A DNA stretch of 64,000 nucleotides from Candidatus Gottesmanbacteria bacterium (GTDB lineage: Bacteria > Patescibacteriota > Microgenomatia > UBA10105 > UBA927). Position 1 is the first letter of the stretch; each line of letters opens with the position of its first letter. Under the pieces are notes generated by a model. That model was not told the origin of the DNA, did not search any database, and saw nothing but the letters and a program-made list of their open reading frames with translations. The translations under genes and the position numbers were made by a program. The stretch lies in assembly GCA_963701185.1 (NCBI GenBank), contig OY969569.1, forward strand, positions 116,392-180,391. The letters run 5' to 3'. Positions 2,938-64,000 of the stretch are shown here, in pieces.

Positions 2938-2955
2938 TAGTATTAAAGGAGGAAT

Positions 2956-3915: not shown

Positions 3916-3924
3916 GCCTACCAT

Positions 3925-6511: not shown

Positions 6512-6512
6512 T

Positions 6513-8701: not shown

Positions 8702-8722
8702 CGCTTCAGGTATAATTTGAGT

Positions 8723-24641: not shown

Positions 24642-24660
24642 ATACGTTATACTAACATAT

Positions 24661-28886: not shown

Positions 28887-28921
28887 ATTTCTATTATATA
28901 ATACATGTCAGACGGATTTAT

Positions 28922-35241: not shown

Positions 35242-35276
35242 GCTATAATGATAGGGTTATCATACATGACAGGCAT

Positions 35277-41603: not shown

Positions 41604-41633
41604 AAAAAATACTGAAGAGTCCGTTTTTTCTGG

Positions 41634-43957: not shown

Positions 43958-44493
43958 AAAAGAAAGTGATCATCTTGTTGATTACTGTTTATTGCTTATT
44001 GTCCACTGTTTCTTCAGTTTATGCCGACTATGTTCTTCCGTACCCGTCCTACATGCCTGGAAATAAACTATACCGGCTCACGAGGATTGTTGATCAATTA
44101 AAAAAGTATTGGTATCGGGGCAACATTGCGCAGACGAAGTATCACCTTGCATTGTCGGATAAGTATCTGGTCGAGGCGAGTACCCTCATGGAATATAAGC
44201 AGTACCTTCTCGGAGCTGATGCGCTGCGGAGATCCGATGCGGAGTTTGCGACGCTACCGGCATACGTTGCCGGCGCCAAAAAAGAAGGAGTCGACGTGCA
44301 TGAGCTGCAGCTTCTTCTTGCGGCTGCAGCCGGGAAACACAGGGAAGTATTAACCGGGCTTCTCCCCGTTGTCCCGCCGGACTTTACCTGGACTCCGGAG
44401 AAATCCAAGCCGACGGCGCTGCCTTTAAGCGACATAATCTCAGCATCAGTTGGTATTAGACAACGTATTGCCAGTGCAACAGGATCCCTATAA
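43954..44493 (+). CDS. Secreted hypothetical protein (signal peptide, 179 aa)
   Basis: MKKKVIILLITVYCLLSTVSSVYA|DY is an Sec-type signal peptide. The mature part is helical and Ala-rich, with no recognised domain. The h-region of the signal peptide is encoded by repeat copy B. Confidence 0.55.
   Translation: MKKKVIILLITVYCLLSTVSSVYADYVLPYPSYMPGNKLYRLTRIVDQLKKYWYRGNIAQTKYHLALSDKYLVEASTLMEYKQYLLGADALRRSDAEFATLPAYVAGAKKEGVDVHELQLLLAAAAGKHREVLTGLLPVVPPDFTWTPEKSKPTALPLSDIISASVGIRQRIASATGSL
43980..44005 (+). repeat. Copy B of the dispersed repeat (26 nt, GATTACTGTTTATTGCTTATTGTCCA)
   Basis: Matches the right inverted repeat of the 50850-51286 cassette at 25/26 positions. Encodes LITVYCLLS of the signal peptide. 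Confidence 0.9.
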
Positions 44494-44495
44494 TC

Positions 44496-48153: not shown

Positions 48154-48836
48154 AAAAACTTTCCGTTATCGTCCCCGTGTATAACGAGCAGAATACTGTC
48201 GGTGAAATACTGCGCCGGATTGAATCTGTCCGGGTCCCCGGTTGGTCAAAAGAAATTATTGTTGTGGACGACGGATCGCGCGACCGGACAAAATCAATTC
48301 TGAAATCATGGGAAAAGAAAGTTCATGTTATCTACAAAGAGAAAAATGAAGGAAAGGGGAGCGCGCTGTGCCTGGGATTTAAAAAGGCCGCGGGTGACGT
48401 CATCCTGATACAGGATGCGGATTTGGAATACAGTCCGACGGACTACCCGATACTTTTGGCGCCTTTTGACAATCCGCACGTGGATGTGGTGTACGGGTCT
48501 CGGTTTTTAGGACCGCACCTTTCCACGATGTTTATCTACGCGCAGGGAAATAAGTTCGTAACGCTCGTGACCAATTTATTGTTTAATACCAATATTACGG
48601 ATATGGAAACGGGATATAAAGTTTTCCGGCGCCGGGCATTGGACGGCATCACCATCCGCGCGAAGCGTTTTGATGTAGAGCCGGAAATCACCGTCAAAGT
48701 ACTGAAAAAAGGATGCCAGATTTATGAAGTCCCCATCTCCTACTACGGAAGAAAATTCGCCGAGGGAAAGAAACTAACCTGGCGGGACGGCGTGGTGGCA
48801 TTATGGACACTTATAAAATATCGTTTCGTAAATTAA
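48150..48836 (+). CDS. GT2 polyprenol-phosphate glycosyltransferase (Dpm1-like)
   Basis: LSVIVPVYNEQNTV...IIVVDDGSRDRT...IQDADLEYSP. Confidence 0.85.
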   Translation: MKKLSVIVPVYNEQNTVGEILRRIESVRVPGWSKEIIVVDDGSRDRTKSILKSWEKKVHVIYKEKNEGKGSALCLGFKKAAGDVILIQDADLEYSPTDYPILLAPFDNPHVDVVYGSRFLGPHLSTMFIYAQGNKFVTLVTNLLFNTNITDMETGYKVFRRRALDGITIRAKRFDVEPEITVKVLKKGCQIYEVPISYYGRKFAEGKKLTWRDGVVALWTLIKYRFVN

Positions 48837-50065
48837 TTAACAATAGCCTTGCCAGAAACAGCGCGATTGTTTTTGCCGGATCCATGGCGGCTAACGTTCT
48901 GGCGTATGTGTATCACCTGCTGATGGGCAGACTTCTGGGCCCGGCAGGATACGGGGAGTTTTCTTCACTCGTGTCGATATTTTATATATTTTCCGTTCCC
49001 CTTGTCGTCGCTTCGACGGTGCTTGTAAAGTTTATTTCCGGATTTAAGGCCCGTCATGCAATCGGTCAGGCAAAATCTCTTTTCTGGAGCGTGACAAAAT
49101 TAGTTTTCGTCATTTCTCTTATCGGACTGCCGGTTATGCTGGGAGCCGCGCCGTGGATCACATCGTTTTTGCATTTATCGTCAGGGGTGTTATTTATGCT
49201 GGTATATCTGACATTCGTCATGTCGCTCCTTTCGATTGCGCCGGCCAGCATGCTTCAGGGGTATCAGCGTTTTGTCTGGGTAAGCGTATTCGCGGTATTC
49301 ATGGTTGCGGTAAAAATACTTTTTAGTGTGCCGATGGCCGCATGGGGAGTATATGGAGTGCTGTCGGCTGCCGCCATCGCCGCAGCCGTTACGTATCTTC
49401 TCTATTATATTCCGCTTGGTTTTATATTAAAGGCAAAAAGTGAGAAAAGCACTGTCAGTAAGCGTGATGCATTCCGGTTTGCAGTCCCGACATTGTTGAT
49501 TCAGCTGGGCATGACATCTTTGTATACGACCGATATCATTCTTGTCAGACATTTTTTCCCCGCAGCGGAGGCCGGATTATATGCCGCACTCGCAATTCTG
49601 GGGAAAATTATATTTTATGCATCAAGCTCGGTTTCTCTTGTTCTTTTTCCCGTTTTGTCAGAACGTACGGAGACAGGTGCGGCGACAAAAAAGCTTACGG
49701 CATCAGCTGTCGGCGGCGTCACTGCGGTTTCCGCCGGAGTCACCGCATTATATTTTCTTTTTCCTGACTTTATTGTAGGATCTCTGTTCGGCAACGCGTA
49801 CGCGGGAGCGGGAAGTTTCCTGGGATTGTTCGGCGTATTTCTTGCATTGTTTTCAGTGGGGAGCATTATCGTGACGGCGTGTTTAGCGTTGGGACGAACC
49901 GGCGTGTGGTTCGTGCCGGTCACCTGTGCTATTCTGCAGATTGCCGGTATAGCCGTTTGGCATGAGAGTATCGGAACAGTCATCAATCTGAATATAGGCG
50001 TCTGTACCCTGTATGTTTTGGGATCTGCCGTCTATTACCTGAAAGTCACGTATGCGAAAATTTAG
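48803..50065 (+). CDS. MOP-superfamily flippase (Wzx-like)
   Basis: 420 aa with about 12 TM helices. N-terminal LINNSLARNSAIVFAGSMAANVLAYVYHLLMGRLLGPAGYGEF resembles Wzx N-termini. Confidence 0.6.
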   Translation: MDTYKISFRKLINNSLARNSAIVFAGSMAANVLAYVYHLLMGRLLGPAGYGEFSSLVSIFYIFSVPLVVASTVLVKFISGFKARHAIGQAKSLFWSVTKLVFVISLIGLPVMLGAAPWITSFLHLSSGVLFMLVYLTFVMSLLSIAPASMLQGYQRFVWVSVFAVFMVAVKILFSVPMAAWGVYGVLSAAAIAAAVTYLLYYIPLGFILKAKSEKSTVSKRDAFRFAVPTLLIQLGMTSLYTTDIILVRHFFPAAEAGLYAALAILGKIIFYASSSVSLVLFPVLSERTETGAATKKLTASAVGGVTAVSAGVTALYFLFPDFIVGSLFGNAYAGAGSFLGLFGVFLALFSVGSIIVTACLALGRTGVWFVPVTCAILQIAGIAVWHESIGTVINLNIGVCTLYVLGSAVYYLKVTYAKI

Positions 50066-50843
50066 CTTAATTATTCCTGTATATAAACAGCAGCAGACCA
50101 TTAAACGCGACATTGAGGACGTCATCTCCGTGCTTTCAACAGCAAAGATTGATTTTGAGATTATCCCGGTCATCGACGGGCAGCTGGACCGCAGTTTTCA
50201 GGAGGCCGGTAAAGTGAAAGACAAACGGGTCCGTGTGGTGGGGTATCAGACGAATCACGGAAAAGGGTATGCCGTCCGGTACGGATTTTCCCAGGCCACG
50301 GGAGACGTGATCGGATTTAAAGACGCAGGGCGGGATTTGAAGCCCGATGCGCTGCCTCTTATGATAGCGGAATTTGATTTTCAACACGCAGATATTGTTA
50401 TCGGCAGTAAAAGGCACCCTGGTTCGAAAGTGGAGTATCCGTTCATCCGAAAAATTCTGTCATGGGTATATCAAAAATTTACTAAACTGCTGTTCGGCCT
50501 GGAAGTCAGGGATACACAGGTTGGAATGAAACTATACAGACGTAAAGTGTTGGAAGATGTATTGCCGAGATTACTTGTGAAGCAATTCGCATTTGACATA
50601 GAGATACTGGCCGTTGCATATCACCTGGGGTACCGAAAAATTTACGAAGCGCCGGTTGAGATAGACTTTTTTTCTGCAAAATCAAGTATTGTTTGGAGCA
50701 AGCTCATACGGATCGTTCTTAATATGCTTCGGGACACGCTTGCCGTGTATTACCGGCTTTACATACTCCGTTATTACGATGATGCGAGCAAACGGAAGTG
50801 GCGGTTCGATCCGGAGTTGAACTTTAGAATTAACATAGGGTAA
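50052..50843 (+). CDS. GT2 glycosyltransferase
   Basis: FSLIIPVYKQQQTI...IIPVIDGQLDRS...VIGFKDAG. Cytosolic GT2 core. Confidence 0.75.
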   Translation: MRKFSLIIPVYKQQQTIKRDIEDVISVLSTAKIDFEIIPVIDGQLDRSFQEAGKVKDKRVRVVGYQTNHGKGYAVRYGFSQATGDVIGFKDAGRDLKPDALPLMIAEFDFQHADIVIGSKRHPGSKVEYPFIRKILSWVYQKFTKLLFGLEVRDTQVGMKLYRRKVLEDVLPRLLVKQFAFDIEILAVAYHLGYRKIYEAPVEIDFFSAKSSIVWSKLIRIVLNMLRDTLAVYYRLYILRYYDDASKRKWRFDPELNFRINIG

Positions 50844-50849
50844 AGAAAC

Positions 50850-51286
50850 GGACAATAATCATTAATCAATAATCGAAAAACGGTATGGATGATGCTAGGA
50901 TTGGTCCAATAAATGATCTACTTTTTGCAAAGGCAGATGATTTGGCTCAATTTATTTACGAATTAACCTATTCATTTCCAAAGGAAGAATTGTTCGGAAT
51001 TACGTCACAGCTAAGACGCGCAGTTTTATCATTACCGCTAAATATTACTGAAGGATATGCGCGGAGAAGCGATCAGGATTATCGTAGATTTCTTGATATA
51101 GCATATGGGTCGTTAAAAGAAGTAAAATATCTTTTATATTTTTGTAAACAAAGAAAAATAATTTCATCTGACAATTATGAAAAACATATGAAAATAGCAG
51201 ACGAATTAGGAGGACTATTATGGAAGAAAATATCTACGTTGCGAAGTAAAGTAACGAAATAGATTATTGTTTATTGCTTATTGTCC
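50850..51286 (+). mobile_element. Inverted-repeat-bounded mini-cassette carrying a four-helix-bundle (23S rRNA IVS-protein family) gene
   Basis: Left IR 50850-50875 GGACAATAATCATTAATCAATAATCG. Right IR 51261-51286 AGATTATTGTTTATTGCTTATTGTCC, whose reverse complement matches the left IR at 22/26. The enclosed ORF is visibly AT-richer than the flanks. No target-site duplication is evident. Confidence 0.55.
50885..51262 (+). CDS. Four-helix-bundle protein (23S rRNA-intervening-sequence protein family)
   Basis: 125 aa. LTYSFPKEELFGITSQLRRAVLSLPLNITEGYARRS..DYRRFLDIAYGSLKEVKYLL matches the conserved F...E...L.SQLRRA..S...NI.EG..R.....F..IA.GSL.E..Y.L signature of this family. Confidence 0.8.
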   Translation: MDDARIGPINDLLFAKADDLAQFIYELTYSFPKEELFGITSQLRRAVLSLPLNITEGYARRSDQDYRRFLDIAYGSLKEVKYLLYFCKQRKIISSDNYEKHMKIADELGGLLWKKISTLRSKVTK

Positions 51287-51289
51287 ATC

Positions 51290-52405
51290 ATGAGGATATT
51301 AATTTTAAATTGGCGGGACGTCAGTCACCCCAAATCCGGCGGTGCGGAGCATGTGACGATGGAGCATGCAAAAGCGTGGGTGAGGGCGGGACACACCGTC
51401 ACGTGGCTGACCAGTCATTATGGCCGTGCGAAGCATGAAAGCACCGTAGATGGCGTGAATTTTGTCCGCCGTGCGGGGTCGCTGACGATCTACCTGTATG
51501 CACCGCTGTATCTTATGCGAAATGCGCACTCATTTGACGTGATTGTTGATGAAGCACACGGATTTCCGTTTTTTTCCCCGTTATTTACCCGAAAGCCGGT
51601 TGTGATTTTTATTCATGAAATTGCGGGGGAAATATGGGATTACATGTTTTCCTTCCCCAAAAACGTTATCGGAAAGTTGCTGGAGCGCTGGTATTTCCGG
51701 GTATATACGCATTGTTTGTTCTGGACCGATGCGCCGTCAACCGCAGAAGAAATTTCCTATCGGGGAATTCCTGTGAGCCAATGCGTTGCGATTCCCTGCC
51801 CGATTATAAAAAGTTCAAAGTTTAAAGTTCAAAGTTCTACTAAAGAACAACATCCCACATATCTTTTCGTCTCCCGCGTGGTGCGCATGAAAGGCGTGGA
51901 GGAGGTTATAAAAGCGTTTTCATTTATTGCCAGAGAACGGCCCGACAGCACATTGTGGATTGTCGGCGGCGGGGAGCCGGGATATATTGCGGAACTTGAT
52001 GATATGACAAAGGAATACGGTGTGAAAAACCGTGTGATGTTTCTCGGGACGCTTTCCGAAAAAGAGAAATATGAACGTATGAGCCGTGCGCATCTCTTGC
52101 TGCACGCATCGGTGAAAGAAGGATGGGGGCTTGTCGTCCTGGAGGCGGCATCGGTCGGTACGCCGGCAGTCGTGTATAACGTCAGCGGGTTAAATAGCGT
52201 GGTGAAAGACGGGGAGACCGGTATTGTGTGTAAGGAAAACTCTCCGCGGGAAATGGCCCGTGAGGCGATGATGCTATACAACAATAAAACGACATACCGC
52301 AAATATCAGGAGAACGGACGTTCATGGGCAAAAAGTTTTCACTGGTCGGATGCAGTCAAACAAAGTCTTTCATTGCTGAAACGGGCAACTTACCGTACTT
52401 CATAA
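51290..52405 (+). CDS. GT4 glycosyltransferase
   Basis: MRILILNWRDVSHPKSGGAEHV. C-terminal EGWGLVVLEAASVGTPAVVYNVSG. ATG 51290 is 3 nt after the right IR. Confidence 0.85.
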   Translation: MRILILNWRDVSHPKSGGAEHVTMEHAKAWVRAGHTVTWLTSHYGRAKHESTVDGVNFVRRAGSLTIYLYAPLYLMRNAHSFDVIVDEAHGFPFFSPLFTRKPVVIFIHEIAGEIWDYMFSFPKNVIGKLLERWYFRVYTHCLFWTDAPSTAEEISYRGIPVSQCVAIPCPIIKSSKFKVQSSTKEQHPTYLFVSRVVRMKGVEEVIKAFSFIARERPDSTLWIVGGGEPGYIAELDDMTKEYGVKNRVMFLGTLSEKEKYERMSRAHLLLHASVKEGWGLVVLEAASVGTPAVVYNVSGLNSVVKDGETGIVCKENSPREMAREAMMLYNNKTTYRKYQENGRSWAKSFHWSDAVKQSLSLLKRATYRTS

Positions 52406-54330
52406 ATCTTAATGGTGTTATTGATAAACACTAGGTCTAAAATATTGCTGACGTTGTCTAACACAAGATTTTTATTACTGTCCATATAGATGTACTTAAT
52501 TCTATTTTTTATTAATTCTTCCCTTACTTTTGTTCCATCAGTACTGCTAAAAATTATGTTTACAGATAGTGCTTGCGGGACGAAAGGGATTCCGTGTGTG
52601 ATTAGCTCGTTTCCCGTATTGGAAAGAAACATCGGCCTGTCAGTATAAACCCCTACATAAGGCGCTTCAGAGTTAAGACCGGTAGTTGGCTCCACTAATA
52701 CGATTGAATTTTCCGGGGTTTCGTTTTGCACGAAATTAAATGCTTTTAATTCTTCGTTGTTTATTACATAACCGGCGTGATTTTTTATGTTAATAATATT
52801 TGTTACTACGGACTGAACGGATTCCGGAACGGTGAGAATGATAATTAAGAAAGCAAGGAATGCATACAATTTTGAATTTTTAAAATTCAACCAATGTGAG
52901 CAGGCAAGAGCTGTATAAAACAAGGCGATAACAAAGGCGGTATAGATAAAGAAGATGCTGTTAGCTCCGCCGGGATTTTGAAGAAAAAATAATCCTATAA
53001 ACGAACACACAATAATTCCTGAAATGAGAAATATATGTATCTCACGCGGAAATAATCGTAACGACTTTTTTGATTGTATAAATCCGAGCAAAACGGTTCC
53101 AAAAGACAGAAAATAGAACAGGGTAAACATCAGGTCGTACACGAGGACTTTTGGCCAATTATTATGACTTTGGTACACCAGTCGTGCCAGTTCGTACCGG
53201 GATAAATTAAACATCGGCTGGACAACCCAATCCTCGACTCTCCAGAAACCGGAGTAAAAAAGTCCGCCCGCACCCAAATTGACAGGAGCGTAGATAATAA
53301 TACTCACAAGAATTGCAAGGAGAGAAGGAACTACCAGCTGAAAATTTTTCTTGATGCAGAGATATCCTGCAGTTATCAGGAGACCACATAAAGAAGCAAT
53401 AGCAGTATTGACCTTAAAGCCGATGACGCTGCCAAAAATAAAGCCGGCAAGAAGAGCTGTATACATTTTTCTCTCTTTACTCCAGACAACGAATATATTT
53501 AATTCTCCTAAAAAGACCACCAGAGAAAACGCCATAGGATAATTGACAAGAAAATTTGAAGCAGGAGCAATGACAGAGCTATGGAAAGATAGGGTTTTTT
53601 GCAATAGAAGAATTGTCAGGTACACCGAATCGCCCGTAAAATATAAAAAGAAAATGAGCCATAAAGTAAAAGACTGTTTTAGTTTCAATAACCGTCCGAA
53701 CGTTATTCCCAAACAACCATATAATATACTCAGCAATAACGGAACATACTGCATGGTTGTATTAACTAACGGAAGATGAAATACGCGGACTAATTCAGCG
53801 ACCGCAATGTGTCCCCAGTAGTGATAATTTCTGACTGTTACGCCTTGTAATCCGGGTTCTATCGGAGGAAAATTATGAGTAATTTGGTTCACGTACGCTA
53901 TATGTAAGATGTTATCCCTGGTATCGCCGCAGCAGTAATAAATACCGTCCTTAAATTGGGTGCCTGCGAACCATGTAACAGTTAATTGTGCAACTACGCC
54001 TAACGACAAAAGGAAAATCAATGGGATTATTGACCGGGGTATGATAGGGATGCGGAAGATATGTTTTTCCTTTATGAAAAACCAAAGCCATGTGATACCG
54101 GTTAAAAGCACATACACGTACGTCAGCCATCTCGCCTGCAGGTATCCGAATATCATACCCTGCCAGGCAAGCAAAACAATGCCCACGACCAGGCTCAGCG
54201 AAATATTTTCAAATTTGCTAAGCCTAAGTTTTTTTAGTACGAGTGATCCCGGAATATATACGGAGAAAAAAACTGCGATCCAGAAATAGATGAAATTCAA
54301 CCAAAATTGTACGTTAAGAAACGTTTGCAT
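52390..54330 (-). CDS. Large polytopic membrane protein (646 aa) with C-terminal extracytoplasmic domain. Low-GC, unknown family (GT-C or polymerase-like candidate)
   Basis: About 14 TM helices followed by a ~150-aa soluble C-terminal domain. Markedly AT-rich relative to neighbours. The 3' end overlaps the 3' end of the 51290 gene by 16 nt. Confidence 0.45.
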   Translation of the reverse strand: MQTFLNVQFWLNFIYFWIAVFFSVYIPGSLVLKKLRLSKFENISLSLVVGIVLLAWQGMIFGYLQARWLTYVYVLLTGITWLWFFIKEKHIFRIPIIPRSIIPLIFLLSLGVVAQLTVTWFAGTQFKDGIYYCCGDTRDNILHIAYVNQITHNFPPIEPGLQGVTVRNYHYWGHIAVAELVRVFHLPLVNTTMQYVPLLLSILYGCLGITFGRLLKLKQSFTLWLIFFLYFTGDSVYLTILLLQKTLSFHSSVIAPASNFLVNYPMAFSLVVFLGELNIFVVWSKERKMYTALLAGFIFGSVIGFKVNTAIASLCGLLITAGYLCIKKNFQLVVPSLLAILVSIIIYAPVNLGAGGLFYSGFWRVEDWVVQPMFNLSRYELARLVYQSHNNWPKVLVYDLMFTLFYFLSFGTVLLGFIQSKKSLRLFPREIHIFLISGIIVCSFIGLFFLQNPGGANSIFFIYTAFVIALFYTALACSHWLNFKNSKLYAFLAFLIIILTVPESVQSVVTNIINIKNHAGYVINNEELKAFNFVQNETPENSIVLVEPTTGLNSEAPYVGVYTDRPMFLSNTGNELITHGIPFVPQALSVNIIFSSTDGTKVREELIKNRIKYIYMDSNKNLVLDNVSNILDLVFINNTIKIYEVR

Positions 54331-54385
54331 GATGTGATACTATGATTATATACCTTCAATCGATATTTTCTGCTAAAATCCCACT

Positions 54386-55231
54386 ATGAATCAGCCGCAG
54401 CCGAAAGTGACGATTACGATCCCCACGTTTAACAGCGCAAAAACTCTCGGCATGTGTTTGGCGGCCGTTCAAAAACAGGAGTACAAAAACATAGAGGTGT
54501 CTGTTGTCGATAGTTATTCCTCTGACGATACGGTGGCCCTCGCCAAACAATTCGGGGTAAAGAATATCTTTTTTTACAAGGGCGGGCTTTTGGGGTCGCG
54601 CCTCGAAGGGATTAAAAAAGCACAGGGATCATATGTCTTACTTTTGGACAGCGATCAGGTTCTTGCAAAACAAAGTATTGCGCGGTGTGTGGAGGTCTGT
54701 GAGCGGGAGGGAAAAGACATGGCGGCGCTGGAAGAGGATGTGTATGAGTGCACCAACTGGCTGCAGTGGTTGTTTAAAATGGACAGAAAGATTATTAACA
54801 CCGTGAACAATCTGGATCCGGAAACAGGAGTTATTTTACCGAGGTTTTTCAGGAAAACGATTCTTCTGGCGGCGGCGTGTGTGATTCCCCGTTCTATTGT
54901 CAATTCCGTCGGAGGCCCTGACCACGCTATTTTGTACTACGAATCATGGAAATTGTCGCAAAAGGTGGGCGTGATCAAAAACGCAGTCCGCCATATGGAG
55001 ACGCGGTCATTTGTCCGGTTTATACAAAAATGCTACCGCTGGGGATATACGAGCTATACGGCAAAAACAGTCTCAAAATACTCAACGCTTATGCGCCGGA
55101 AAGAGCGGTTCCGGAGGGGGCTATTTACAAAAGGGCTTGTTGTGGCAAGCCTTGCATCACTGACACTTTTGGTATTAAAAGGCATTCCGTATAAGATAGG
55201 GTACACTGTGGCGCGGATGAAAGGAACGTAA
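54386..55231 (+). CDS. GT2 glycosyltransferase
   Basis: VTITIPTFNSAKTL...VSVVDSYSSDDT...LLLDSDQV. Confidence 0.8.
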   Translation: MNQPQPKVTITIPTFNSAKTLGMCLAAVQKQEYKNIEVSVVDSYSSDDTVALAKQFGVKNIFFYKGGLLGSRLEGIKKAQGSYVLLLDSDQVLAKQSIARCVEVCEREGKDMAALEEDVYECTNWLQWLFKMDRKIINTVNNLDPETGVILPRFFRKTILLAAACVIPRSIVNSVGGPDHAILYYESWKLSQKVGVIKNAVRHMETRSFVRFIQKCYRWGYTSYTAKTVSKYSTLMRRKERFRRGLFTKGLVVASLASLTLLVLKGIPYKIGYTVARMKGT

Positions 55232-55232
55232 C

Positions 55233-55925
55233 ATGAATGTATTTTTAAATAAGATGTTCAACAGGGCGCTCTCCCTCAACAGCCGCAATATTTATGCGAT
55301 GCTGGAGAAAAATCCTAAGGCGAAATTATTGGACCTCGGTTGCTTTGAGGGTGAATTGACGGTGAAACTGGGAGAATGCGTCGGGACAAAAAATCTGTAC
55401 GGCATCGATGTGGTGCCGGAGGTTCTTCGGAATGCAAGGAAACGCGGGGTTCAGATAAAAATAGGAAATCTCAATGAAAAGTTTCCATACAGGAGCAACT
55501 ACTTTGATGTCGTCCATGGCAATCAGGTGATCGAACATATGTACGACTCGGATATGTTTCTGTCGGAGCTCTATCGGGTTCTTAAACCCGGCGGCTATGC
55601 CATTATCAGTACGGAAAATGCCAGCAGCTGGATCAATATCGCGGCTGCGATTATGGGATGGCAGATTTTTTCCCTGACCAATATTTCCTCCAAACGATTG
55701 GGGATCGGAAACCCCCTGGCGATGTTCCGCAACCAAAACATTACGTATGCCTCTTTCGGACATATGCGGGTTTATAATTTTTGGGGTCTTAAGGAATACT
55801 GTGAAGTCATGGGATTTACGGTAGAAGATATCAAAGGCGCGGGATATTTTCCGCTGCCGGCACAACTGGGGAATATCGAAAAAATTCATGCACATTTTAT
55901 GACGTTTAAAATACGCAAAACATGA
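55233..55925 (+). CDS. Class I SAM-dependent methyltransferase
   Basis: LDLGCFEGELT (motif I), VVHGNQVIEHM..D, VLKPGGYAIIS (post-motif II/III). Confidence 0.8.
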   Translation: MNVFLNKMFNRALSLNSRNIYAMLEKNPKAKLLDLGCFEGELTVKLGECVGTKNLYGIDVVPEVLRNARKRGVQIKIGNLNEKFPYRSNYFDVVHGNQVIEHMYDSDMFLSELYRVLKPGGYAIISTENASSWINIAAAIMGWQIFSLTNISSKRLGIGNPLAMFRNQNITYASFGHMRVYNFWGLKEYCEVMGFTVEDIKGAGYFPLPAQLGNIEKIHAHFMTFKIRKT

Positions 55926-56956
55926 AAAATAACCCGCTCGTTTCAATTATTATCGTCAATTGGAACGGAAAACAGTGGCTTCCTGATTGTTTTAACAGTT
56001 TAGCACGTCAGGATTGGAAAAATTATGAAATCATTTTTGTTGATAATGCCTCACCTGATGGATCGGTGGATTGGGTGAGGGGTCATTACCCGAAAGCAAA
56101 AATCCTCATAAATGAAAAAAACTTAGGATTTGCTGACGCGAATAATGTCGGGTTCCGAAAAGCGAAAGGAAAATATGTGTTATTCCTCAATAATGATATT
56201 AGGGTGACCAAAACATTTTTATCAATATTGGTTGATTTTTTAGAACATCATAAAGATGTGGCAGGCGTACAAAGCAAATTATTGCTGATGGATGCACCTG
56301 ATAGACTTGACGCCATTGGCGCATTTTTTACGAATACCGGATTTCTTTATCATTACGGCTTTCATGCGAAAGATTCGGAAAAATTAGACAAAATAATTGA
56401 TATCTATACGACAAAAGGGGCATGCATGATGTTTAGAAAGTCAGCACTGGATAAGATTTCGATTAACGGGGATATTTTTGACCCCTCGTACTTTGCCTAT
56501 TTTGAAGAAACAGATATGTGTCACAGGGTGTGGCTGAATGGATATCGGATACAGTATGTGCCTCAATCGGTGATTTATCATAAAGCAGGCGGCACATCGA
56601 CTACTATGAATAATTCATTTATTCAATACCATTCGTTTAAAAACAGGATACAATCGTACGTAACCAATTTAAGCACAGGAACGTTATTAGTTCTTATGCC
56701 CGTTCATTTAGCATTGACTGGAGGATTTGCGTTAGCGGCGTTTCTCCGCGGTAAATGGCGGCTCGGTTTGTCGGTGATCAGCGCTGTAGGCTGGAATATA
56801 GTTCATATGAGCGCAACCATGGCGAAACGGTCGTACGTTCAAATCCGTATCCGTAAATTATCAGATAAAGAATTACTACCAAGAATTACACGAAATCAGG
56901 GAATCCAGTATTATCGCAAACTTCTTAAAGGTTTATCATTATACCAGCATGAATAA
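55922..56956 (+). CDS. GT2 glycosyltransferase
   Basis: VSIIIVNWNGKQWL...IIFVDNASPDGS...LFLNNDI. ATGA overlap. Confidence 0.85.
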   Translation: MKNNPLVSIIIVNWNGKQWLPDCFNSLARQDWKNYEIIFVDNASPDGSVDWVRGHYPKAKILINEKNLGFADANNVGFRKAKGKYVLFLNNDIRVTKTFLSILVDFLEHHKDVAGVQSKLLLMDAPDRLDAIGAFFTNTGFLYHYGFHAKDSEKLDKIIDIYTTKGACMMFRKSALDKISINGDIFDPSYFAYFEETDMCHRVWLNGYRIQYVPQSVIYHKAGGTSTTMNNSFIQYHSFKNRIQSYVTNLSTGTLLVLMPVHLALTGGFALAAFLRGKWRLGLSVISAVGWNIVHMSATMAKRSYVQIRIRKLSDKELLPRITRNQGIQYYRKLLKGLSLYQHE

Positions 56957-58631
56957 TGCGTTGACCAAAAAGATTTTTCAGTATGGCATAGTGTGTGCGG
57001 TTTACTCGTTTTTTCTTTGGGTAGCCTACCGGTATCTCCCCCAAACCTATTATTTTCATGACGAATGGAGACAATTGGCTCATGTGATGATCTACGGAGT
57101 CGGCTATGAGATACAGGGCAATTCAATTATCGCATTGATGCTGGGAAAAGGTAGGGTGCTCGGAACGTTTATTAATAATCTCTTTTTTTACTATTTTCCG
57201 TTTGACGTGTTGCCGTTTATTTTGTTTTCTGTAATCGGCCACCTCCTTAATTCCGTATTGGTTTTTCGAATAACCCGCCGCATTATCAGGCAATTTTGGC
57301 CTGCCTTTTTTGCGGGACTGTTTTTTGCAGTTTCATTCCGTCACGAGCAGGCGTTATCCTGGATTGGCGCAAACGTACAGATGATTGGTTCGCTCTTTTT
57401 TCTCCTTATGAGCATCGATTTTCTCCTTAGGTACATCCAAAAGAGGGTTAAAAGAAACATCGTATTTTCAGCTATATTTTTTTATATCTCGTATCTTTTT
57501 AAGGAAAATGTGCTTTTTTTCCCAATTGTTATCGTTATTCTCATGGCAACGAGACAAATTTTGATAAGGAAAGTAAGCAAGGCATTTCTTGTCGCTACTC
57601 TCGTTTCGTTTGTTTTAGGAATCCCTATTGCATTTCGCCTGTTTGGAAGTTACACAACAAACACCCTGGGATTTTCCGGATCTGCGATAGTTCTTAAACA
57701 GGCAGTAAATAGTCTGTTTTATCCTATTGTTACGCTCGGGCAATATATTCTTCCATTCCGGTTTATCTACCGTGCCGCCGCGTGGGTGCTTATGATGTGG
57801 TATCCATTTATGGATACGGGCGGAAACATAGAATCTCTCCTGCATTTTCCGCTATCGGACATGGTGTCGCTCTGTATGTCGTCTATTCTTCTTTTAGCAA
57901 TCTTCATTACGTTCATTCGTTACAAGAAAATGCGGTTTTGGATCTATGCAGGGTTTTTGTATTACGTACTAAGTTTCCTTCCGATAGCCTTCCATCTTAT
58001 CCATCGGTATGATACGCAGATCGAATCAAGATTCGTTTACACAACGACCCCCGCCGTCGCATTTTTGTTGGCTTGCGGTCTGTCTTATGTTCTGGGTTTA
58101 CTCCGTAAAATAAAACACATCATATCTGTTGTCATTCAATTACTGATTATCGTCAGCCTTCTATTTATAAATTATAAAATTGCATCAGTAACCCGTCGGG
58201 AAGTAGGCGTATCTGCATATGAAGGAAAAGCGATGACGGGATTTATGACGGCACTAAAAAAGGAAAACCCCACGCTTCCTCCAAAAGCCATTTTATATTT
58301 TGAAAGTGACCGAACGTATTTTTACGATAATAATATCCTGCCGTTTAAGCTTGGCAGCGGGTACATTTTGAGTATTCTCTATTATCATGATGGTCCCATT
58401 CCGGCGGCATCATTATTAAAAGAGCAGCTTCTTGATTTTGGATCACAAGGGATCGTGGAAGGCGATGAAAAAATGTTTGGGTATTACCAAAATAAGGAAA
58501 GTTTAAAAAATGATTTTGTAGAAAAACATTTGTTTTCAACGGACAAGATCAAAGCATTCCGGTTTATCAGTACTAATAACTCAGTAATTGATATAACAGA
58601 CCAAATTCGGAAGTATCTACTAACGCCATGA
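56949..58631 (+). CDS. Polytopic membrane protein (560 aa), unknown family. GT-C-like candidate
   Basis: About 11 TM helices with a soluble C-terminal region. AT-rich. No recognisable catalytic motif beyond an early YYFHDEW loop. Confidence 0.4.
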   Translation: MNNALTKKIFQYGIVCAVYSFFLWVAYRYLPQTYYFHDEWRQLAHVMIYGVGYEIQGNSIIALMLGKGRVLGTFINNLFFYYFPFDVLPFILFSVIGHLLNSVLVFRITRRIIRQFWPAFFAGLFFAVSFRHEQALSWIGANVQMIGSLFFLLMSIDFLLRYIQKRVKRNIVFSAIFFYISYLFKENVLFFPIVIVILMATRQILIRKVSKAFLVATLVSFVLGIPIAFRLFGSYTTNTLGFSGSAIVLKQAVNSLFYPIVTLGQYILPFRFIYRAAAWVLMMWYPFMDTGGNIESLLHFPLSDMVSLCMSSILLLAIFITFIRYKKMRFWIYAGFLYYVLSFLPIAFHLIHRYDTQIESRFVYTTTPAVAFLLACGLSYVLGLLRKIKHIISVVIQLLIIVSLLFINYKIASVTRREVGVSAYEGKAMTGFMTALKKENPTLPPKAILYFESDRTYFYDNNILPFKLGSGYILSILYYHDGPIPAASLLKEQLLDFGSQGIVEGDEKMFGYYQNKESLKNDFVEKHLFSTDKIKAFRFISTNNSVIDITDQIRKYLLTP

Positions 58632-59788
58632 GACTGGAAAAAGATTTTAGTGAAAAAACCGCTGTTATCGTTTGTCACGACGTGATGTTCGGGCCGCCGC
58701 ACGAACTCCGTGATTATTTGCTCCGCCATCAGATAACGGACTTGGTTTTTATCGGACATAGAAATAGAGCGCTGCCGGAAAATGAGATTCACCGGTCTTA
58801 CTGTGCAATATACCGGAAAGGCGCAAAAATACGGATCGCATATGCTCGGGATATTTCGCGTTTCCCTGAATTTGTTGCCTACGCTATCGACTGTTTGTGG
58901 ACATTCTATTGGGTGTTGAAGTTTGCCCGCCGTGCCGATTATTATTTCGGTCTTGGCAATATGAATGCCTGTGTCGGGCTAGTCTTGAAGCTCATCGGAA
59001 AAGTAAAAAAGGTTATTTATTATGTTATTGATTATATTCCGGACCGGTTTTCCAGTCCTTTGATCAACAGGTTGTATATGAAACTTGATTATTGGGCCGC
59101 GATATATGCAGGTGCGACATGGAATTACGCGCCGAAGATGATAGCATTGCGTGAAAAAATGTGGGGGAAAACATTTTTGCGTCAGCATGTTGTTCCAAAC
59201 GGGATACGGATACGCGCTTCAGGTTCGGCAACAAAGGACATGAGACATATTGATTTGATGTATTTAGGAACGATTCACCGTCAGCAGGGAATTCAACTCG
59301 CTATAGAGTCTCTTCCCTTGATTAAGAGAAAAATTCCGCACGTACGACTTCTTATCATAGGTAAGGGTCCGTATAAAGAAGATTTAGGTGTTTTGATTCG
59401 GGAAAGGAAACTCGGGAATCAGGTTCGATTTTTAGGCTACATAGAAGATCCGGAAAAAGCGGACGAAAAACTGGTACAAGGGCACATAGGTGTTGCAACA
59501 TATACACCCGATAACACGATGGTCCGCAATACGGAACCCGGAAAAATTAAGAGGTATTTTGCGTGCGGTCTGCCGGTGATTATGACAGACACAGGGCCAA
59601 TTTCACAACTCTCAGAAAGGACAGGGTGCGGCATTTCAATCCCATACAGCTCCATCATTTTTGCCCGTGAGGTTATTCGATTGATATCTGATAGACAGCG
59701 TTATGAGGAGATGCGTAAGAAGGCAATTTCGTTTGTAAAAAAGTACGATTGGGAACAAATATTTAACCGGAGTTTTCAATCGCTTTGA
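58628..59788 (+). CDS. GT4-family glycosyltransferase (divergent)
   Basis: C-terminal half HVRLLIIGKGPYKEDL...EPGKIKRYFACGLPVIMTD matches the GT4 C-domain. N-terminal domain is atypical. Confidence 0.65.
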   Translation: MRLEKDFSEKTAVIVCHDVMFGPPHELRDYLLRHQITDLVFIGHRNRALPENEIHRSYCAIYRKGAKIRIAYARDISRFPEFVAYAIDCLWTFYWVLKFARRADYYFGLGNMNACVGLVLKLIGKVKKVIYYVIDYIPDRFSSPLINRLYMKLDYWAAIYAGATWNYAPKMIALREKMWGKTFLRQHVVPNGIRIRASGSATKDMRHIDLMYLGTIHRQQGIQLAIESLPLIKRKIPHVRLLIIGKGPYKEDLGVLIRERKLGNQVRFLGYIEDPEKADEKLVQGHIGVATYTPDNTMVRNTEPGKIKRYFACGLPVIMTDTGPISQLSERTGCGISIPYSSIIFAREVIRLISDRQRYEEMRKKAISFVKKYDWEQIFNRSFQSL

Positions 59789-59799
59789 AATAGCTTATA

Positions 59800-60990
59800 A
59801 TGCAGTCTATTATGATTAAGCTCATAAAATCTACGTTCTTTAATGAGGCAAAAACCAAGCAGGAACTTACGAAATTTATTCTTGGCGCCGATAAATTGAG
59901 CATTGGAACTGAATGCCGTACGTTTGAAAAACACTTTGCATCATATCAGGGGAAAAAACACTGCGTATTCGTCAATAGCGGGAGTTCAGCAAATCTTGCA
60001 CTTATTCAGGCGCTTCTGAATACCGGCAGATTAAAAAAGGGCGATCGTGTGGGTTTTTCCGCCCTCACGTGGTCCACGAACGTCATGCCTCTTATTCAAT
60101 TGGGTCTTGTGCCCGTGCCGGTTGATATTGAGCTGGATACACTGAATGTTTCGTCCAAAACGTTTGCCACGCTTATAAAGAAACACCCGGTGAAAGCCTT
60201 ATTCCTCACAAATCTTCTTGGTTTCTGCGACGATATCGATGCGATTGCACGGTTGTGCAGGAAAAACAATATTATTCTGATTGAAGATAACTGCGAATCA
60301 CTAGGGACGGTCTATAAAGGAAAAAAACTTGGGAATTACGGTATTGCATCAACATTCTCATTTTATGTCGGACATCACATGTCGACGGTTGAGGGCGGGG
60401 CAGTGGTCACCGACGATGATGAGCTTGCCACTATGCTGCATTTAGTGCGTGCTCACGGATGGGATAGGAACTTGACGGAAGAAAAGCAGCTTTTTTTGCG
60501 ACTTAAGCATAACGTGAACTCAACGTTTTATTCCCGGTATACATTTTATGACCTCGGATATAATTTTCGCACCACGGAAATCCAGGGATTCTTGGGGAAT
60601 AATCAGCTTCGATATCTTCCGCGGATCGTCCGGTTACGTGAACAAAATTTCATGACTCTGGCAAAAGCAATATATTCACGTACAGACCTCTTTTATCCCA
60701 TACGGTTTACCCATATAGATATCATCTCGAATTTTGCCGTTCCGGTGATCTGTCGAACACGGGCGATTCGTGATCGTTTCGTTGAGGCTTGTAACGGGAA
60801 AGTTGAGATTCGTCCGATTGTCGGCGGGGATATGACGCGGCAGCCATTTTTCCATAAATACTTTCCGCTGCAAAACAGAATTCAACCGGTGAATGCACGA
60901 TTGGTGCATGAACAGGGCCTGTATTTCGGAAATAATCCTGAACTCACGAAGAAAGAAATTCAAACCATTATTAAGATTTTTACCGGATAG
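59800..60990 (+). CDS. DegT/DnrJ/EryC1-family PLP/PMP enzyme with His replacing the Schiff-base Lys. Putative nucleotide-sugar 3-dehydratase (ColD/E1-like)
   Basis: The fold-type I sugar aminotransferase family motif is SF(H/Y)xxKxxxxxEGG. Here it reads SFYVGHHMSTVEGG, with His at the Lys position. 396 aa with no extra Cys cluster, which is closer to ColD than to E1. Confidence 0.65.
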   Translation: MQSIMIKLIKSTFFNEAKTKQELTKFILGADKLSIGTECRTFEKHFASYQGKKHCVFVNSGSSANLALIQALLNTGRLKKGDRVGFSALTWSTNVMPLIQLGLVPVPVDIELDTLNVSSKTFATLIKKHPVKALFLTNLLGFCDDIDAIARLCRKNNIILIEDNCESLGTVYKGKKLGNYGIASTFSFYVGHHMSTVEGGAVVTDDDELATMLHLVRAHGWDRNLTEEKQLFLRLKHNVNSTFYSRYTFYDLGYNFRTTEIQGFLGNNQLRYLPRIVRLREQNFMTLAKAIYSRTDLFYPIRFTHIDIISNFAVPVICRTRAIRDRFVEACNGKVEIRPIVGGDMTRQPFFHKYFPLQNRIQPVNARLVHEQGLYFGNNPELTKKEIQTIIKIFTG

Positions 60991-61051
60991 ATGTATCATT
61001 GTGAGAGTATTCTCTTCTCCCATTAAAAATGTTGGTTATTTCGGCTATCGG

Positions 61052-61825
61052 ATGATAGCACCTCTTTTCGACCCGATTAAATTTTTCTACGGATTAACAG
61101 GGTACGCATGGTTTATCCGTGATTGGATGAGATATAAAAGGTTTGCTCCGAAAGAAAAAATCGCCGGCATCAACCTCTTTCCTATTCTTGACGAGAAAGT
61201 TTCTCTTACGCCGTTTGATGCGCATTATTATTATCAGGAAATATGGGCAATGAAACGGATTTTAGCGCGGAAACCAAAAAAACATATAGATCTGGCGTCA
61301 AAATACAATTTCAGCGGGTACCTTTCCCAGTTTCTTCCCGTAGATTTTGTTGATTTGCGGCCGATTAACGCACATCTTCCGGGATTAACGATCATAAAGG
61401 CCGACATTCTCCGCCTTCCGTATAAAAGTAATTCCCTGTCCTCATTATCAAGCCTACATGTTATTGAGCATATCGGTTTGGGCCGGTACGGCGATGCTGT
61501 AGACCCTGAAGGAACCAAAAAAGCGATTAAGGAAATGATCCGTGTTGTGAAACCGGGCGGTTATATATATCTTTCTTTGCCAATCGGCGAATACAGAATG
61601 TGCTTTAACGCGCATCGTATTCATACTCCCGAAATGATTATTGAAGGATTTACTAAATGTAAACTTGTTGAGTTTTCCGTTGTCGATGATGAGGGAAACT
61701 TATATGAAAAGGCAGACTGGAGAAACTACGGGAAAATCCATTATGGCTGCGGCCTCTTTATTTTTCGGAAAAGAAATCGGGTAAGCCCGCCAAGCAAGAG
61801 AATTCCGGCCTTAATGAAAGAATAA
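61052..61825 (+). CDS. Hypothetical protein, possible methyltransferase-fold (DUF268-like)
   Basis: The ORF is open from 60893 but overlaps the DegT gene. Likely start is GTG 61001 or ATG 61052. VVKPGGYIYLSLPIG resembles an MTase post-motif. No canonical GxGxG. Confidence 0.4.
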   Translation: MIAPLFDPIKFFYGLTGYAWFIRDWMRYKRFAPKEKIAGINLFPILDEKVSLTPFDAHYYYQEIWAMKRILARKPKKHIDLASKYNFSGYLSQFLPVDFVDLRPINAHLPGLTIIKADILRLPYKSNSLSSLSSLHVIEHIGLGRYGDAVDPEGTKKAIKEMIRVVKPGGYIYLSLPIGEYRMCFNAHRIHTPEMIIEGFTKCKLVEFSVVDDEGNLYEKADWRNYGKIHYGCGLFIFRKRNRVSPPSKRIPALMKE

Positions 61826-62694
61826 ATAAAAAGAACATTGTCCGACAGAAGTTTGCCGATGAGGCTGATTAAAAATAGCGGCTTGCGGTAAAAAGGTATT
61901 GTCGATCGTACTATATGCAGTGATCCGTAGTACCAATCACAGAGAAACATTATCGGAAAAAGCAAATATCGAAAAGCTTTTTGAAATAGCATTCCTGATA
62001 GTCTAACCTCAGATAGGTTCTGGTATACGGAAAGATACATGCCATTATCCCGTATAAAAAAAAGATTCTTCGGTACATAAAGCAAATCTCCCTGTAATAA
62101 AAGAAAAATTGCCAGGGAGTTATCATACCCTTTTATTCCGAATGGTCTTTTTTCATGCATGACCCGTCTAAAATTATCAATAAATCGTCGTGTTCTGCGG
62201 TGTATGCCGTAGAGCAGTACCGAAACGCATTCGGGGTGCAGCAGATACGTATAAAAAGAGGCAGTCGGGCGGCTTACGCGCCGGAAAAAAACCGGAATGG
62301 GAAATGACCGGTGCTTTGTAAAAAGCGTTGTGTCAGTAATTGCTGTTGTAGATTTTGGATTTTGCTCTAACAGCGGGATAAGCTCTGATATCCATGTTTT
62401 GCCGCGTATATCATCGTCCGAAGCCCAAAAAAAATATTTACCTCTGGCCTTTTCTAAAACAAATAAGGAATTTTCCCCTACTCCAAGGTTTGCGCGCTGT
62501 CTATAATAGCGAATGCGTCTGTCTTTTTTAAGATATTCTTTACATACGCCTGCAGTAGTATCAGTTGAATGATTATCGGAGATAATTATTTCGACGTTTT
62601 TATAATCAAGGCTCGTGAGATTAGCAAGACACGCTTTAAGATCTTCAGCGCGGTTATATGTCGGAACGCCGATGCTTACAAGTGGCTTATCCAT
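61741..62694 (-). CDS. GT2 glycosyltransferase
   Basis: VSIGVPTYNRAEDL...IIISDNHSTDTT...WASDDDI. The 3' end overlaps the 3' end of the 61052 gene by 85 nt. Confidence 0.85.
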   Translation of the reverse strand: MDKPLVSIGVPTYNRAEDLKACLANLTSLDYKNVEIIISDNHSTDTTAGVCKEYLKKDRRIRYYRQRANLGVGENSLFVLEKARGKYFFWASDDDIRGKTWISELIPLLEQNPKSTTAITDTTLFTKHRSFPIPVFFRRVSRPTASFYTYLLHPECVSVLLYGIHRRTRRFIDNFRRVMHEKRPFGIKGYDNSLAIFLLLQGDLLYVPKNLFFIRDNGMYLSVYQNLSEVRLSGMLFQKAFRYLLFPIMFLCDWYYGSLHIVRSTIPFYRKPLFLISLIGKLLSDNVLFIYSFIKAGILLLGGLTRFLFRKIKRPQP

Positions 62695-62750
62695 AAAAAT
62701 TACTGTTCACATTATATACGAATATAAGTGACATGGTATACTAAACGCGT
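62695..62750 (+). promoter_or_regulatory. Divergent promoter region. Candidate extended -10 (TGgTATACT) for the Fcl-like gene
   Basis: ...GTGACATGGTATACTAAACGCGT ATG. TGnTATACT lies about 12 nt upstream of ATG 62751. Confidence 0.3.
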
Positions 62751-63725
62751 ATGAATAACTTTTTCCGGTCAAAAAAGGTTTTAGTCACAGGGGGTACAGG
62801 TTTTATCGGAAGCCACGTTGTGGAAAAGCTGGTTGCCTTGGGTGCACGGGTGACGGTCCTTGACCGGATACGAAACGGACGGATTAAACATATTCCCCAT
62901 TTGAAGGACAGGGTAAAATTTATCCAGGGCGACTGTGCGGATCCCGCAGCGGCGTTTGATGCATGTAAGAAACAGGAAATTGTCATGAATCTTGCCGCAC
63001 GTGTCGGCGGAATCGGTTTTAACCGCGATCATCAGGGGACGATGCTGTACAACAATTTAGATATTGAATCTACCATGATGGAGGCTGCCCGGAAAGCAGA
63101 GGTGGAAAGATTTCTGGTTATTTCATCCGCGTGCGTTTACCCGCACGATGCAAAAATCCCGACGCCGGAATCGGAAGGGTTCCGCGGTGAACCGGAAGAG
63201 ACAAACGGTGGTTATGGTTGGGCCAAGCGCATGGCAGAGAAGCTTGGGAAATATTATGCGGAAGAATTCGGTATGAAAGTCGGCATCGTCCGGCCCTACA
63301 ATGCCTACGGGCCACGTGATCATTTCGATCCTGCAAGTTCCCACGTCATACCGGCACTCATCAAACGCGTGATGGACGGCGAGAATCCCGTTGTTGTCTG
63401 GGGGAGCGGAAAGCAGACCAGGGCTTTTTTGTATGTGGAAGATGTAGCGGACGGCATGATCCGCGCGATTGAAAAATATCCGATACCTGACCCCGTGAAT
63501 CTCGGAACTGACGAGGAGGTATCCGTAGCGGATCTAATAAAAAAGATTATCCGTATTTCAGGAAAGAAAACCATTGTTCGGTTCGACCGGACAAAACCGG
63601 ACGGCAGCCCGAGACGCAATAGCGATAATACAAAAGCGAAAGAAAAAATAGGTTTTGAAGCTTCTACACCGCTGGATGTGGGCCTTCAAAAGACAATCGA
63701 CTATTATTGTATGATTGATTCATAA
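62751..63725 (+). CDS. GDP-L-fucose synthase family SDR (Fcl/GMER-like; ColC-like epimerase/reductase candidate)
   Basis: [14 protein letters not shown]. Blocks [67 protein letters not shown] align with conserved E. coli Fcl blocks ([67 protein letters not shown]). Confidence 0.8.
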   Translation: [324 protein letters not shown]

Positions 63726-64000
63726 TACTTCTCATATCTATATTTTTTAGCAAGAAGAAGAGATTTTTTCTGGAAAAGAGGATATTTCTGCATCAGTTGA
63801 TGTACCGCACCGACGAATTCCGCCGAATGATATGGAATAACTATTCCGGCTTGGCTGCGGGAGATTTCTTTCGAAAAATCGAATACGTTTGTTGTTATGA
63901 CTGGCAATCCCACCTCGATATATTTTTTTATTTTCGATGGGTCGCTGTAGTATGTTACGTTCGCTTTATCGGGGACGTAAGGAGCTATTCCGATATGACA
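63704..64000 (-). CDS. GT4 glycosyltransferase, C-terminal fragment (N-terminus beyond window end)
   Basis: The minus-strand frame is open to nt 64000. ...IGIAPYVPDKANVTYYSDPSKIKKYIEVGLPVITTNV... is the GT4 C-domain motif. Overlaps the Fcl-like gene's 3' end by 22 nt. Confidence 0.6.
   Translation of the reverse strand, partial: CHIGIAPYVPDKANVTYYSDPSKIKKYIEVGLPVITTNVFDFSKEISRSQAGIVIPYHSAEFVGAVHQLMQKYPLFQKKSLLLAKKYRYEKYYESIIQ

Follow-up and report, generated by a model that had tools for sequence, protein, structure and literature searches.

Which sugar is made by a member of the Patescibacteria that encodes a DegT-family enzyme with a histidine in place of the cofactor-binding lysine, and on which nucleotide is that sugar carried? 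The question arises from a stretch of DNA of Candidatus Gottesmanbacteria bacterium (GCA_963701185.1, contig OY969569.1, 116,392-180,391 of the forward strand), which we call the window; it is 64,000 nucleotides (nt) long and forms one large glycosylation island. Coordinates are window positions unless they are prefixed by a locus label (L and a number), which denotes a genome or metagenome locus of homologues. An initial annotation of the window had read three of its open reading frames (ORFs) as a route from GDP-mannose to GDP-L-colitose, and all three are present (59800..60990, 62751..63725 and 2956..3915). Judged by its sequence, the first of these, starting at 59800 or 59812, encodes a ColD-type, iron-sulfur-free 3-dehydratase with histidine for lysine. 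We lean towards the view that this enzyme and an Fcl/ColC-like partner act on a GDP sugar and supply a surface glycan with a colitose-like sugar. The analysis covered a residue alignment of 84 homologues from the Candidate Phyla Radiation (CPR), 80 genome loci around ColD-like homologues, 64 metagenome loci around YerE-like genes and, within the window, all ORFs of at least 150 residues other than those nested within a longer one.

The protein is a full-length member of the DegT_DnrJ_EryC1 family (Pfam PF01041, 217 bits against a cut-off of 19.8, residues 19-393). Its likely start, as in most relatives, lies four codons into the ORF, at 59812 (392 aa); the 396-aa form is also called in one public genome (P0241). 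The best match among solved structures is ColD (2gms, E 7.5e-60), ahead of Yersinia E1 (3bcx, E 6.8e-45) and of sugar aminotransferases (E 1e-31 or weaker). Since the identity to a solved structure is about 35%, the fold can be regarded as fixed.

Nucleotides 60358..60399 translate to SFYVGHHMSTVEGG, the first histidine of which stands in the catalytic position. It aligns with His188 of wild-type ColD, in a column that holds Asn in 3b8x and Lys in 2r0t. As we take these two chains to be the H188N and H188K mutants of ColD, the column is that of His188, and the catalytic position is securely aligned. The His-His pair is invariant in 84 of 84 CPR homologues, so that both the comparison with ColD and the conservation within the family bear out the histidine that the initial annotation had noticed at the position of the lysine that binds pyridoxal phosphate. 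The residues corresponding to ColD His188, Arg219, Asn248, Glu329 and Arg331 are all conserved in the window protein. Two segments around these, HGWDRNL (with Arg219) and VEIRPIV (with Arg331), are invariant throughout the CPR family and E. coli ColD; their two arginines correspond to the pyrophosphate anchors of ColD. Altogether, E. coli ColD and every CPR homologue agree in 50 alignment columns. Among them are ColD-specific residues that differ in E1, such as Glu329 (Gly in E1) and Arg219 (Cys251 in E1).

The two known types of 3-dehydratase differ in their cofactors. E1 and SpnQ hold a [2Fe-2S] cluster, which ColD does without, and pyridoxamine phosphate (PMP) is regenerated from glutamate in ColD but requires the reductase E3 in the case of E1 (reviewed in PMC8987622). 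The cluster motif of E1 has the form C193-X57-C-X-C-X7-C. Three of these four cysteines are missing from the window protein, where Cys251, Cys253 and Cys261 face an arginine, a leucine and a gap; the position of Cys193 is kept, as it is in ColD. None of the 84 CPR homologues contains a CxC motif. In the alignment that the initial annotation had suggested, there is thus a histidine in the Schiff-base column and no CxCx7C, and its preference for ColD over E1 stands, given the best structural match, the three missing cysteines and the retained Arg219 and Arg331. No E3-type reductase (Fer2, FAD_binding_6, NAD_binding_1) appears in the gene lists of seven loci (L001-L004, L088-L090).

With E1 (DdhC, RfbH, AscC) the window protein shares the fold, the catalytic histidine and 32% identity. 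Its best NCBIfam model is also RfbH, but the score of 220 bits lies far under the cut-off of 423. A pair of genes resembling CDP-glucose synthase and dehydratase is found in the same cluster. The window protein differs from E1 in lacking Cys251, Cys253 and Cys261 together with the loop that carries them, in being about 40 residues shorter, and in the absence of an E3-type reductase from the gene lists of its cluster. With ColD (WbdK; E. coli O55, Yersinia pseudotuberculosis O:6) it shares the DegT fold, a length of about 390 aa, the histidine for lysine followed by a second histidine, the residues Asp159, Glu162, Ser183, Asn248, Glu329, Arg219 and Arg331, the lack of an iron-sulfur cysteine motif and, at the level of the locus, a nearby Fcl/ColC-type partner. 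The differences from ColD are an identity of only 35.5%, a stretch between Arg219 and Asn248 that is largely unlike, and the replacement of Pro251 in the GYNxRP loop by Thr in the clade of the window protein; further, the window locus has no gmd, manB or manC, and a methyltransferase and a family 2 glycosyltransferase (GT2) gene are inserted between dehydratase and reductase.

With E1 as the root, a neighbour-joining tree joins the CPR family to E. coli ColD as its sister group. Since the window protein is 35.5% identical to E. coli ColD and 32.0% to E1, the CPR family, as far as its sequences can tell, forms a separate branch that stands with ColD and not with E1.

Within this family the chemistry is expected to run as follows. 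The bound PMP would form a Schiff base with the C4 keto group of a nucleoside diphosphate (NDP)-4-keto-6-deoxyhexose; the histidine that replaces the lysine would take the C4' proton, and the 3-hydroxyl would depart. Hydrolysis of the resulting enamine would yield a 4-keto-3,6-dideoxy sugar and ammonia. The cofactor would then be recharged by glutamate, which would make an iron-sulfur cluster and an E3 reductase dispensable. The 62751..63725 protein, a short-chain dehydrogenase/reductase (SDR), could next epimerise C5 and reduce C4 to give a 3,6-dideoxy-L-hexose, which the neighbouring GT2 and family 4 glycosyltransferase (GT4) may attach to the surface glycan. The methyltransferase encoded nearby may methylate the dideoxy sugar. 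Substrate, nucleotide, product and the origin of the 4,6-dehydration are all inferred: most likely, GDP-4-keto-6-deoxy-D-mannose is converted into GDP-L-colitose or a close relative. Of the route from GDP-mannose to GDP-L-colitose that had been proposed initially, the ColD-type enzyme and the Fcl-like partner are retained; the assignment of a Gmd is not, and neither manB and manC nor a gmd is found in the window.

The family membership, the active-site residues and the linkage to the dehydratase gene can be read directly also for the Fcl/ColC-like partner. Its best solved matches are GDP-fucose synthases (E 4e-51), and it matches GDP-mannose 3,5-epimerase over the full length (E 1e-42). A MAFFT alignment shows that Ser107, Cys109, Tyr136, Lys140 and His179 of E. 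coli Fcl are all kept; we take Ser107, Tyr136 and Lys140 to be catalytic and Cys109 and His179 to be the epimerisation pair. These five residues uphold the assignment to the Fcl/ColC family, although the protein misses the equivalog cut-off and is only 32% identical to E. coli Fcl. Identities to the Fcl homologues that flank ColD homologues elsewhere are 36-38%. A further difference from Fcl is a long N-terminal Rossmann segment like that of GDP-mannose 3,5-epimerase and UDP-xylose synthase. It is a reasonable inference that the protein acts as an epimerase and 4-reductase on a GDP-type 4-keto sugar. In the window the two genes are about 1.8 kb apart; in most relatives they are directly adjacent. 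Throughout the Microgenomates clade, the direct neighbour that recurs is the Fcl-like gene, in most members at a distance of 3-7 nt.

A possible source of the 4-keto-6-deoxy substrate is the short SDR encoded at 2956..3915, which the initial annotation had called a Gmd-family dehydratase. It sits 57 kb from the ColD-like gene, beside genes for RmlB, RmlD and Ugd. Its best match is not a Gmd but Rmd of A. thermoaerophilus, a 4-reductase (2pk3, E 6.5e-85, 45% identity), followed by the GDP-D-glycero-D-manno-heptose 4,6-dehydratase of C. jejuni (7us5, E 1.4e-64, 41%) and E. coli Gmd (1db3, E 2.4e-49, 37%). It also fails the Gmd equivalog TIGR01472 (191.6 bits, cut-off 415) and, aligned to E. coli Gmd, lacks both Gmd-specific insertions, the RR loop and the C-terminal one. 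What speaks for a dehydratase is the motif NHTGPRRGDTF, which reads NHESPRRGETF in E. coli Gmd, THSGPRRSDVF in the heptose dehydratase and NHIGPGQ in both solved reductases. The earlier designation therefore holds for this motif, while the best match, the equivalog score, the missing insertions and the distance of 57 kb count against it. Among CPR loci, a Gmd-family copy that stands beside a true Gmd (L070) reads PGQ, and the copies in L013 and L031, each the sole Gmd-family gene beside a guanylyltransferase, read PRR. One further Gmd chain (7kf3) has SPLR at this place. The motif that follows the NH dyad, (S/G)PRR in dehydratases versus GPGQ in reductases, may serve as a discriminator. Because the window encodes this Gmd/Rmd-family SDR, some metabolism of GDP-4-keto-6-deoxy sugars is to be expected in the organism, be the protein a dehydratase or a reductase, and this speaks for GDP as the carrier.

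The carrier nucleotide comes into question because CDP genes and a module with DmpF, DmpG and a YerE-like enzyme lie on the same contig. We favour GDP, and hold a role of the ColD-type enzyme on a CDP sugar to be rather doubtful. The closest homologue from outside the CPR, on a Streptomyces plasmid (53.4% identity), is found in the order gmd - DegT - GDP-L-fucose synthase, and a Chelatococcus homologue in the order manC - gmd - fcl - DegT. In the basal CPR homologues L059 and L074 (64% identity), the dehydratase gene lies 4-17 nt behind the gene for a true Gmd and ahead of one for an Fcl homologue; a true Gmd also occurs no further than 10 kb away in nine more loci, mostly titled Saccharibacteria. 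When we compared 29 sequences of the Microgenomates clade (16 of them with RfbF/RfbG in range) with 13 that are linked to Gmd or ManC, just two of about 390 columns set the two groups apart: Ile versus Phe at residue 35 and Thr versus Pro at residue 258 of the 396-aa ORF (window 59902-59904 and 60571-60573). The residues that correspond to ColD ligands are invariant across gene contexts.

As to the two separating columns, Ile35 and Thr258 are characteristic of the Microgenomates clade; Phe and Pro take their place in the other members of the CPR, and Met and Pro in E. coli ColD. Residue 258 is located in the loop GYNxR(P/T)xE, beside the conserved Asn248. The idea that the two residues track the loss of E1 was rejected, as L024 has Ile and Thr together with an E1.

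Several points weigh against a GDP-linked colitose-type route. The identity to ColD is only slightly above that to E1. No true gmd, manB or manC was found in the 64-kb window or in about 17 kb downstream of it (L001, L089), and for activating a sugar the conserved cluster offers just the RfbF-like and RfbG-like pair; the erwiniose-type module of the window lineage shows no E1. The Fcl-like protein scores 207 bits with the NCBIfam model GDPFucSynFcl, whose cut-off is 500, which places it at family level only, and it has the long N-terminus seen in GDP-mannose 3,5-epimerase and UDP-xylose synthase.

The sequence past the window end can be followed in locus L001, which matches window 52324..64000 at 100% identity and runs 6,990 bases further; past the Fcl-like gene it encodes a GT4 and a GT2 (both on the minus strand), a 373-aa protein, a cytidylyltransferase-like protein, a 4,6-dehydratase-like SDR, DmpF and DmpG. 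The cytidylyltransferase, about 3 kb past the window, resembles the glucose-1-phosphate cytidylyltransferase RfbF (TIGR02623, 272.5 bits, cut-off 300; PDB 1tzf, E 1.5e-58), and the best model for the RfbG-like SDR is CDP-glucose 4,6-dehydratase. The acylating acetaldehyde dehydrogenase DmpF and the 4-hydroxy-2-oxovalerate aldolase DmpG both score above their cut-offs. In the close relative L089 there follow a 600-aa thiamine diphosphate (ThDP) enzyme, a class I/II aminotransferase, a small SDR, two GT2 and a family B DNA polymerase gene, at which the island ends. The ThDP enzyme has the YerE-like JanthE as its best solved match (E 1.2e-123, versus 1.7e-76 for acetolactate synthase). The published erwiniose gene set comprises ErwJ, ErwI, ErwE, ErwF and the genes for CDP-4-keto-3,6-dideoxy-D-glucose, the sugar that serves as acceptor (PMC9306805). 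As in clusters for erwiniose and yersiniose, the contig encodes DdhA-, DdhB-, ErwJ- and ErwI-like proteins, a YerE-like ThDP enzyme and a small SDR; unlike these clusters, the window lineage has no DdhC (E1) or DdhD (E3), which distinguishes it also from the relatives L092, L024 and L081 that do carry E1, and it has the class I/II aminotransferase in addition.

This near-complete erwiniose-type set spans L001 14755-18667 (3-7 kb past the window end) and L089 1-5274. The family B DNA polymerase gene of L089 occupies 7294-9714, and the gene that adjoins it (9720-11138) combines cyclodipeptide synthase and solute-binding domains. Some other relatives have, at L002/L016 ~19181-21179 (P0123, P0126), a DmpG-like aldolase fused to an MptE-like domain (578-582 aa), with genes for a 4Fe-4S protein and a HAD hydrolase ahead of it; a split transketolase is found instead in L003 and L004. 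The branching chemistry downstream of RfbF/RfbG appears variable among relatives.

If the ColD-type enzyme were instead the iron-sulfur-free 3-dehydratase of a CDP pathway, its product would pass to the erwiniose-type module and, perhaps, to the Fcl-like enzyme as well. CDP-4-keto-6-deoxy-D-glucose would come from the RfbF-like and RfbG-like proteins encoded on the contig; DmpF, DmpG and the YerE-like ThDP enzyme follow, as in the published erwiniose gene set (PMC9306805); and in 16 Microgenomates loci the ColD-like gene occurs together with RfbF/RfbG-like genes. Further, no E1 was seen in about 80 kb of the island of the window lineage, which looks complete and ends at the family B DNA polymerase gene; its sole 3-dehydratase gene is the ColD-like one. 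A CDP carrier was the reading we favoured at first, on account of the RfbF/RfbG pair and the erwiniose-type module, and it was downgraded when three relatives (L024, L081, L092) proved to contain a genuine E1 (His and CxCx7C, 434-476 bits) in addition to the ColD-like/Fcl-like pair, L092 having the same cluster layout. Since a genuine E1 stands beside the pair, the CDP branch in these relatives has a dehydratase of its own and the two modules are independent. Canonical YerE loci have the order RfbF - RfbG - E1 - YerE, with an E1 that has the histidine and CxCx7C. The ORF that follows E1 in L092, considered as an E3 reductase, was rejected; it is a GT4. Colitose and yersiniose A are likewise produced together in Y. 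pseudotuberculosis O:6 (PMC5399914), a parallel to the co-occurrence of E1 and the ColD-like enzyme. Moreover, the active site shows no systematic change between RfbF/RfbG-linked and Gmd-linked members, the direct neighbour is always the Fcl-like gene and not the CDP genes, and L013 and L031, members of the same clade, carry GDP-type modules instead. Finally, as E1 is missing altogether from certain YerE-like loci (L109, L134), an acceptor other than a 3-deoxy sugar is possible for the YerE-like enzyme. Taken as a whole, we regard a CDP-linked function as unlikely.

The locus L013 bears also on a second alternative, in which the ColD-type enzyme acts on a GDP-6-deoxy-4-keto-heptose to give a 3,6-dideoxyheptose and the short SDR is a heptose 4,6-dehydratase, as its second-best solved match would allow. 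3,6-Dideoxyheptoses occur in Campylobacter capsules. In L013 (16504-18820) the slot of RfbF/RfbG holds a short Gmd-family SDR and a fusion of an HddC-type nucleotidyltransferase with a GmhB phosphatase, a set of the GDP-heptose type. This context is found in only one of the 80 loci, however, and GmhA, HddA, HddC and GmhB were not seen in the ORF scan of the window, which leaves a heptose substrate very improbable. Independently of this, the different content of the slot in L013 indicates that the sugar-supply module of the cluster has apparently been swapped between relatives.

That the protein is a sugar aminotransferase after all, as databases name it (DegT/DnrJ/EryC1/StrS aminotransferase) and as the aminotransferase side activity of SpnQ without its reductase might suggest, or else an inactive relic, is hardly credible in the light of the histidine for the Schiff-base lysine in all 84 homologues, the 50 columns invariant with ColD, the strong purifying selection for which at least 120 clusters at 69% identity or more argue, and the absence of transferase activity from ColD and E1 under comparable conditions (PMC8987622).

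The features of the locus are listed below.

Features of the window that bear on the ColD-type locus
Feature	Position	Strand	Basis
Short Gmd/Rmd-family GDP-sugar SDR	2956..3915	+	Rmd (2pk3) best PDB match
GT4 glycosyltransferase, upstream neighbour	58628..59788	+	Pfam Glycos_transf_1; same slot in L001-L004, L016
Putative ColD-type PMP-dependent NDP-4-keto-6-deoxyhexose 3-dehydratase	59800..60990	+	396-aa ORF; Pfam DegT, PDB ColD
Catalytic His codon (His192 of the 396-aa ORF = ColD His188)	60373..60375	+	Translation, ColD alignment
DUF268/Methyltransf_11-type S-adenosylmethionine-dependent methyltransferase	61052..61825	+	Pfam DUF268, E 1.6e-13
GT2 glycosyltransferase between dehydratase and reductase	61741..62694	-	Pfam Glycos_transf_2, E 3.6e-27; kept in L001-L004, L016
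Putative Fcl/ColC-family NDP-4-keto-sugar epimerase/4-reductase, 324 aa	62751..63725	+	NCBIfam, PDB, catalytic residues

For the methyltransferase, the length of 257 aa follows the gene calls of relatives (L001), the longest ORF beginning at 60893. A gene of this type directly follows the dehydratase gene only in the sub-clade of the window and, with a lower score, in L068. A sequence search of the protein against the PDB gave no match. Elsewhere, the DUF268 family is named for Caenorhabditis proteins.

The island as a whole encodes GT2 and GT4 enzymes, PMT_2/GT-C and YfhO membrane proteins and flippase-like proteins. Between 5255 and 50843, where nearly all genes lie on one strand, we counted at least 11 PMT_2/GT-C-type, four YfhO-type and two PTPS_related membrane proteins, two flippase-like proteins and many GT2 and GT4. 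The scan found no second DegT gene in the window. The part with the dehydratase had been described as of low GC content and probably acquired. Its GC content is indeed lower (0.423 in 50001..64000 vs 0.476 in 1..50000), but a tRNA search of the window found none and the ColD-like block is syntenic in related Microgenomates, at 71-78% nucleotide identity, so that horizontal acquisition is not demonstrated.

The family to which the dehydratase belongs is large, with 7,206 relatives among the candidates scored and at least 120 clusters at 69% identity or more; the few clusters at this level that bear a source name are all from Patescibacteria. ColD-like genes are found in many genome loci of Microgenomates, Saccharibacteria and Parcubacteria. 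A Patescibacteria-type cluster is also found in records titled 'uncultured Gammaproteobacteria' (L005, L006, L008, L009 and many other loci), which looks like mislabelling of metagenome-assembled genomes. The source databases label the proteins as DegT-family aminotransferases only, or as E1 by automatic transfer, and among the papers that our literature search ranked and listed, none connects Patescibacteria with colitose or dideoxyhexoses. The window protein is a previously undescribed member of the ColD family with the chemistry expected of it, and ColD-type enzymes are common in Patescibacteria.

For the CDP side of the question, the lineage provides a clean test case of whether a ColD-type enzyme can stand in for the E1/E3 pair on CDP sugars, because it seems to keep a complete branched-sugar module without E1. 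Should the ColD-type enzyme, as the only 3-dehydratase of the lineage, serve a CDP-hexose pathway, alone or beside the GDP pathway, for which we see a small chance, CDP-4-keto-3,6-dideoxyglucose would pass from it to the YerE-like ThDP enzyme and become a branched sugar of the erwiniose type. This would be an iron-sulfur-free, E3-independent and so far undescribed route to CDP-3,6-dideoxyhexoses.

On the GDP-linked reading that we favour, a rare sugar similar to colitose is the probable product of the cell. The 3,6-dideoxyhexoses, a rare kind of sugar, are familiar chiefly as antigenic determinants of Gram-negative pathogens. Since a well-conserved ColD-type enzyme is widespread in Patescibacteria, our findings suggest that 3,6-dideoxyhexoses are part of the surface decoration of this ultrasmall, host-attached group, which would bear on its recognition by hosts and phages.

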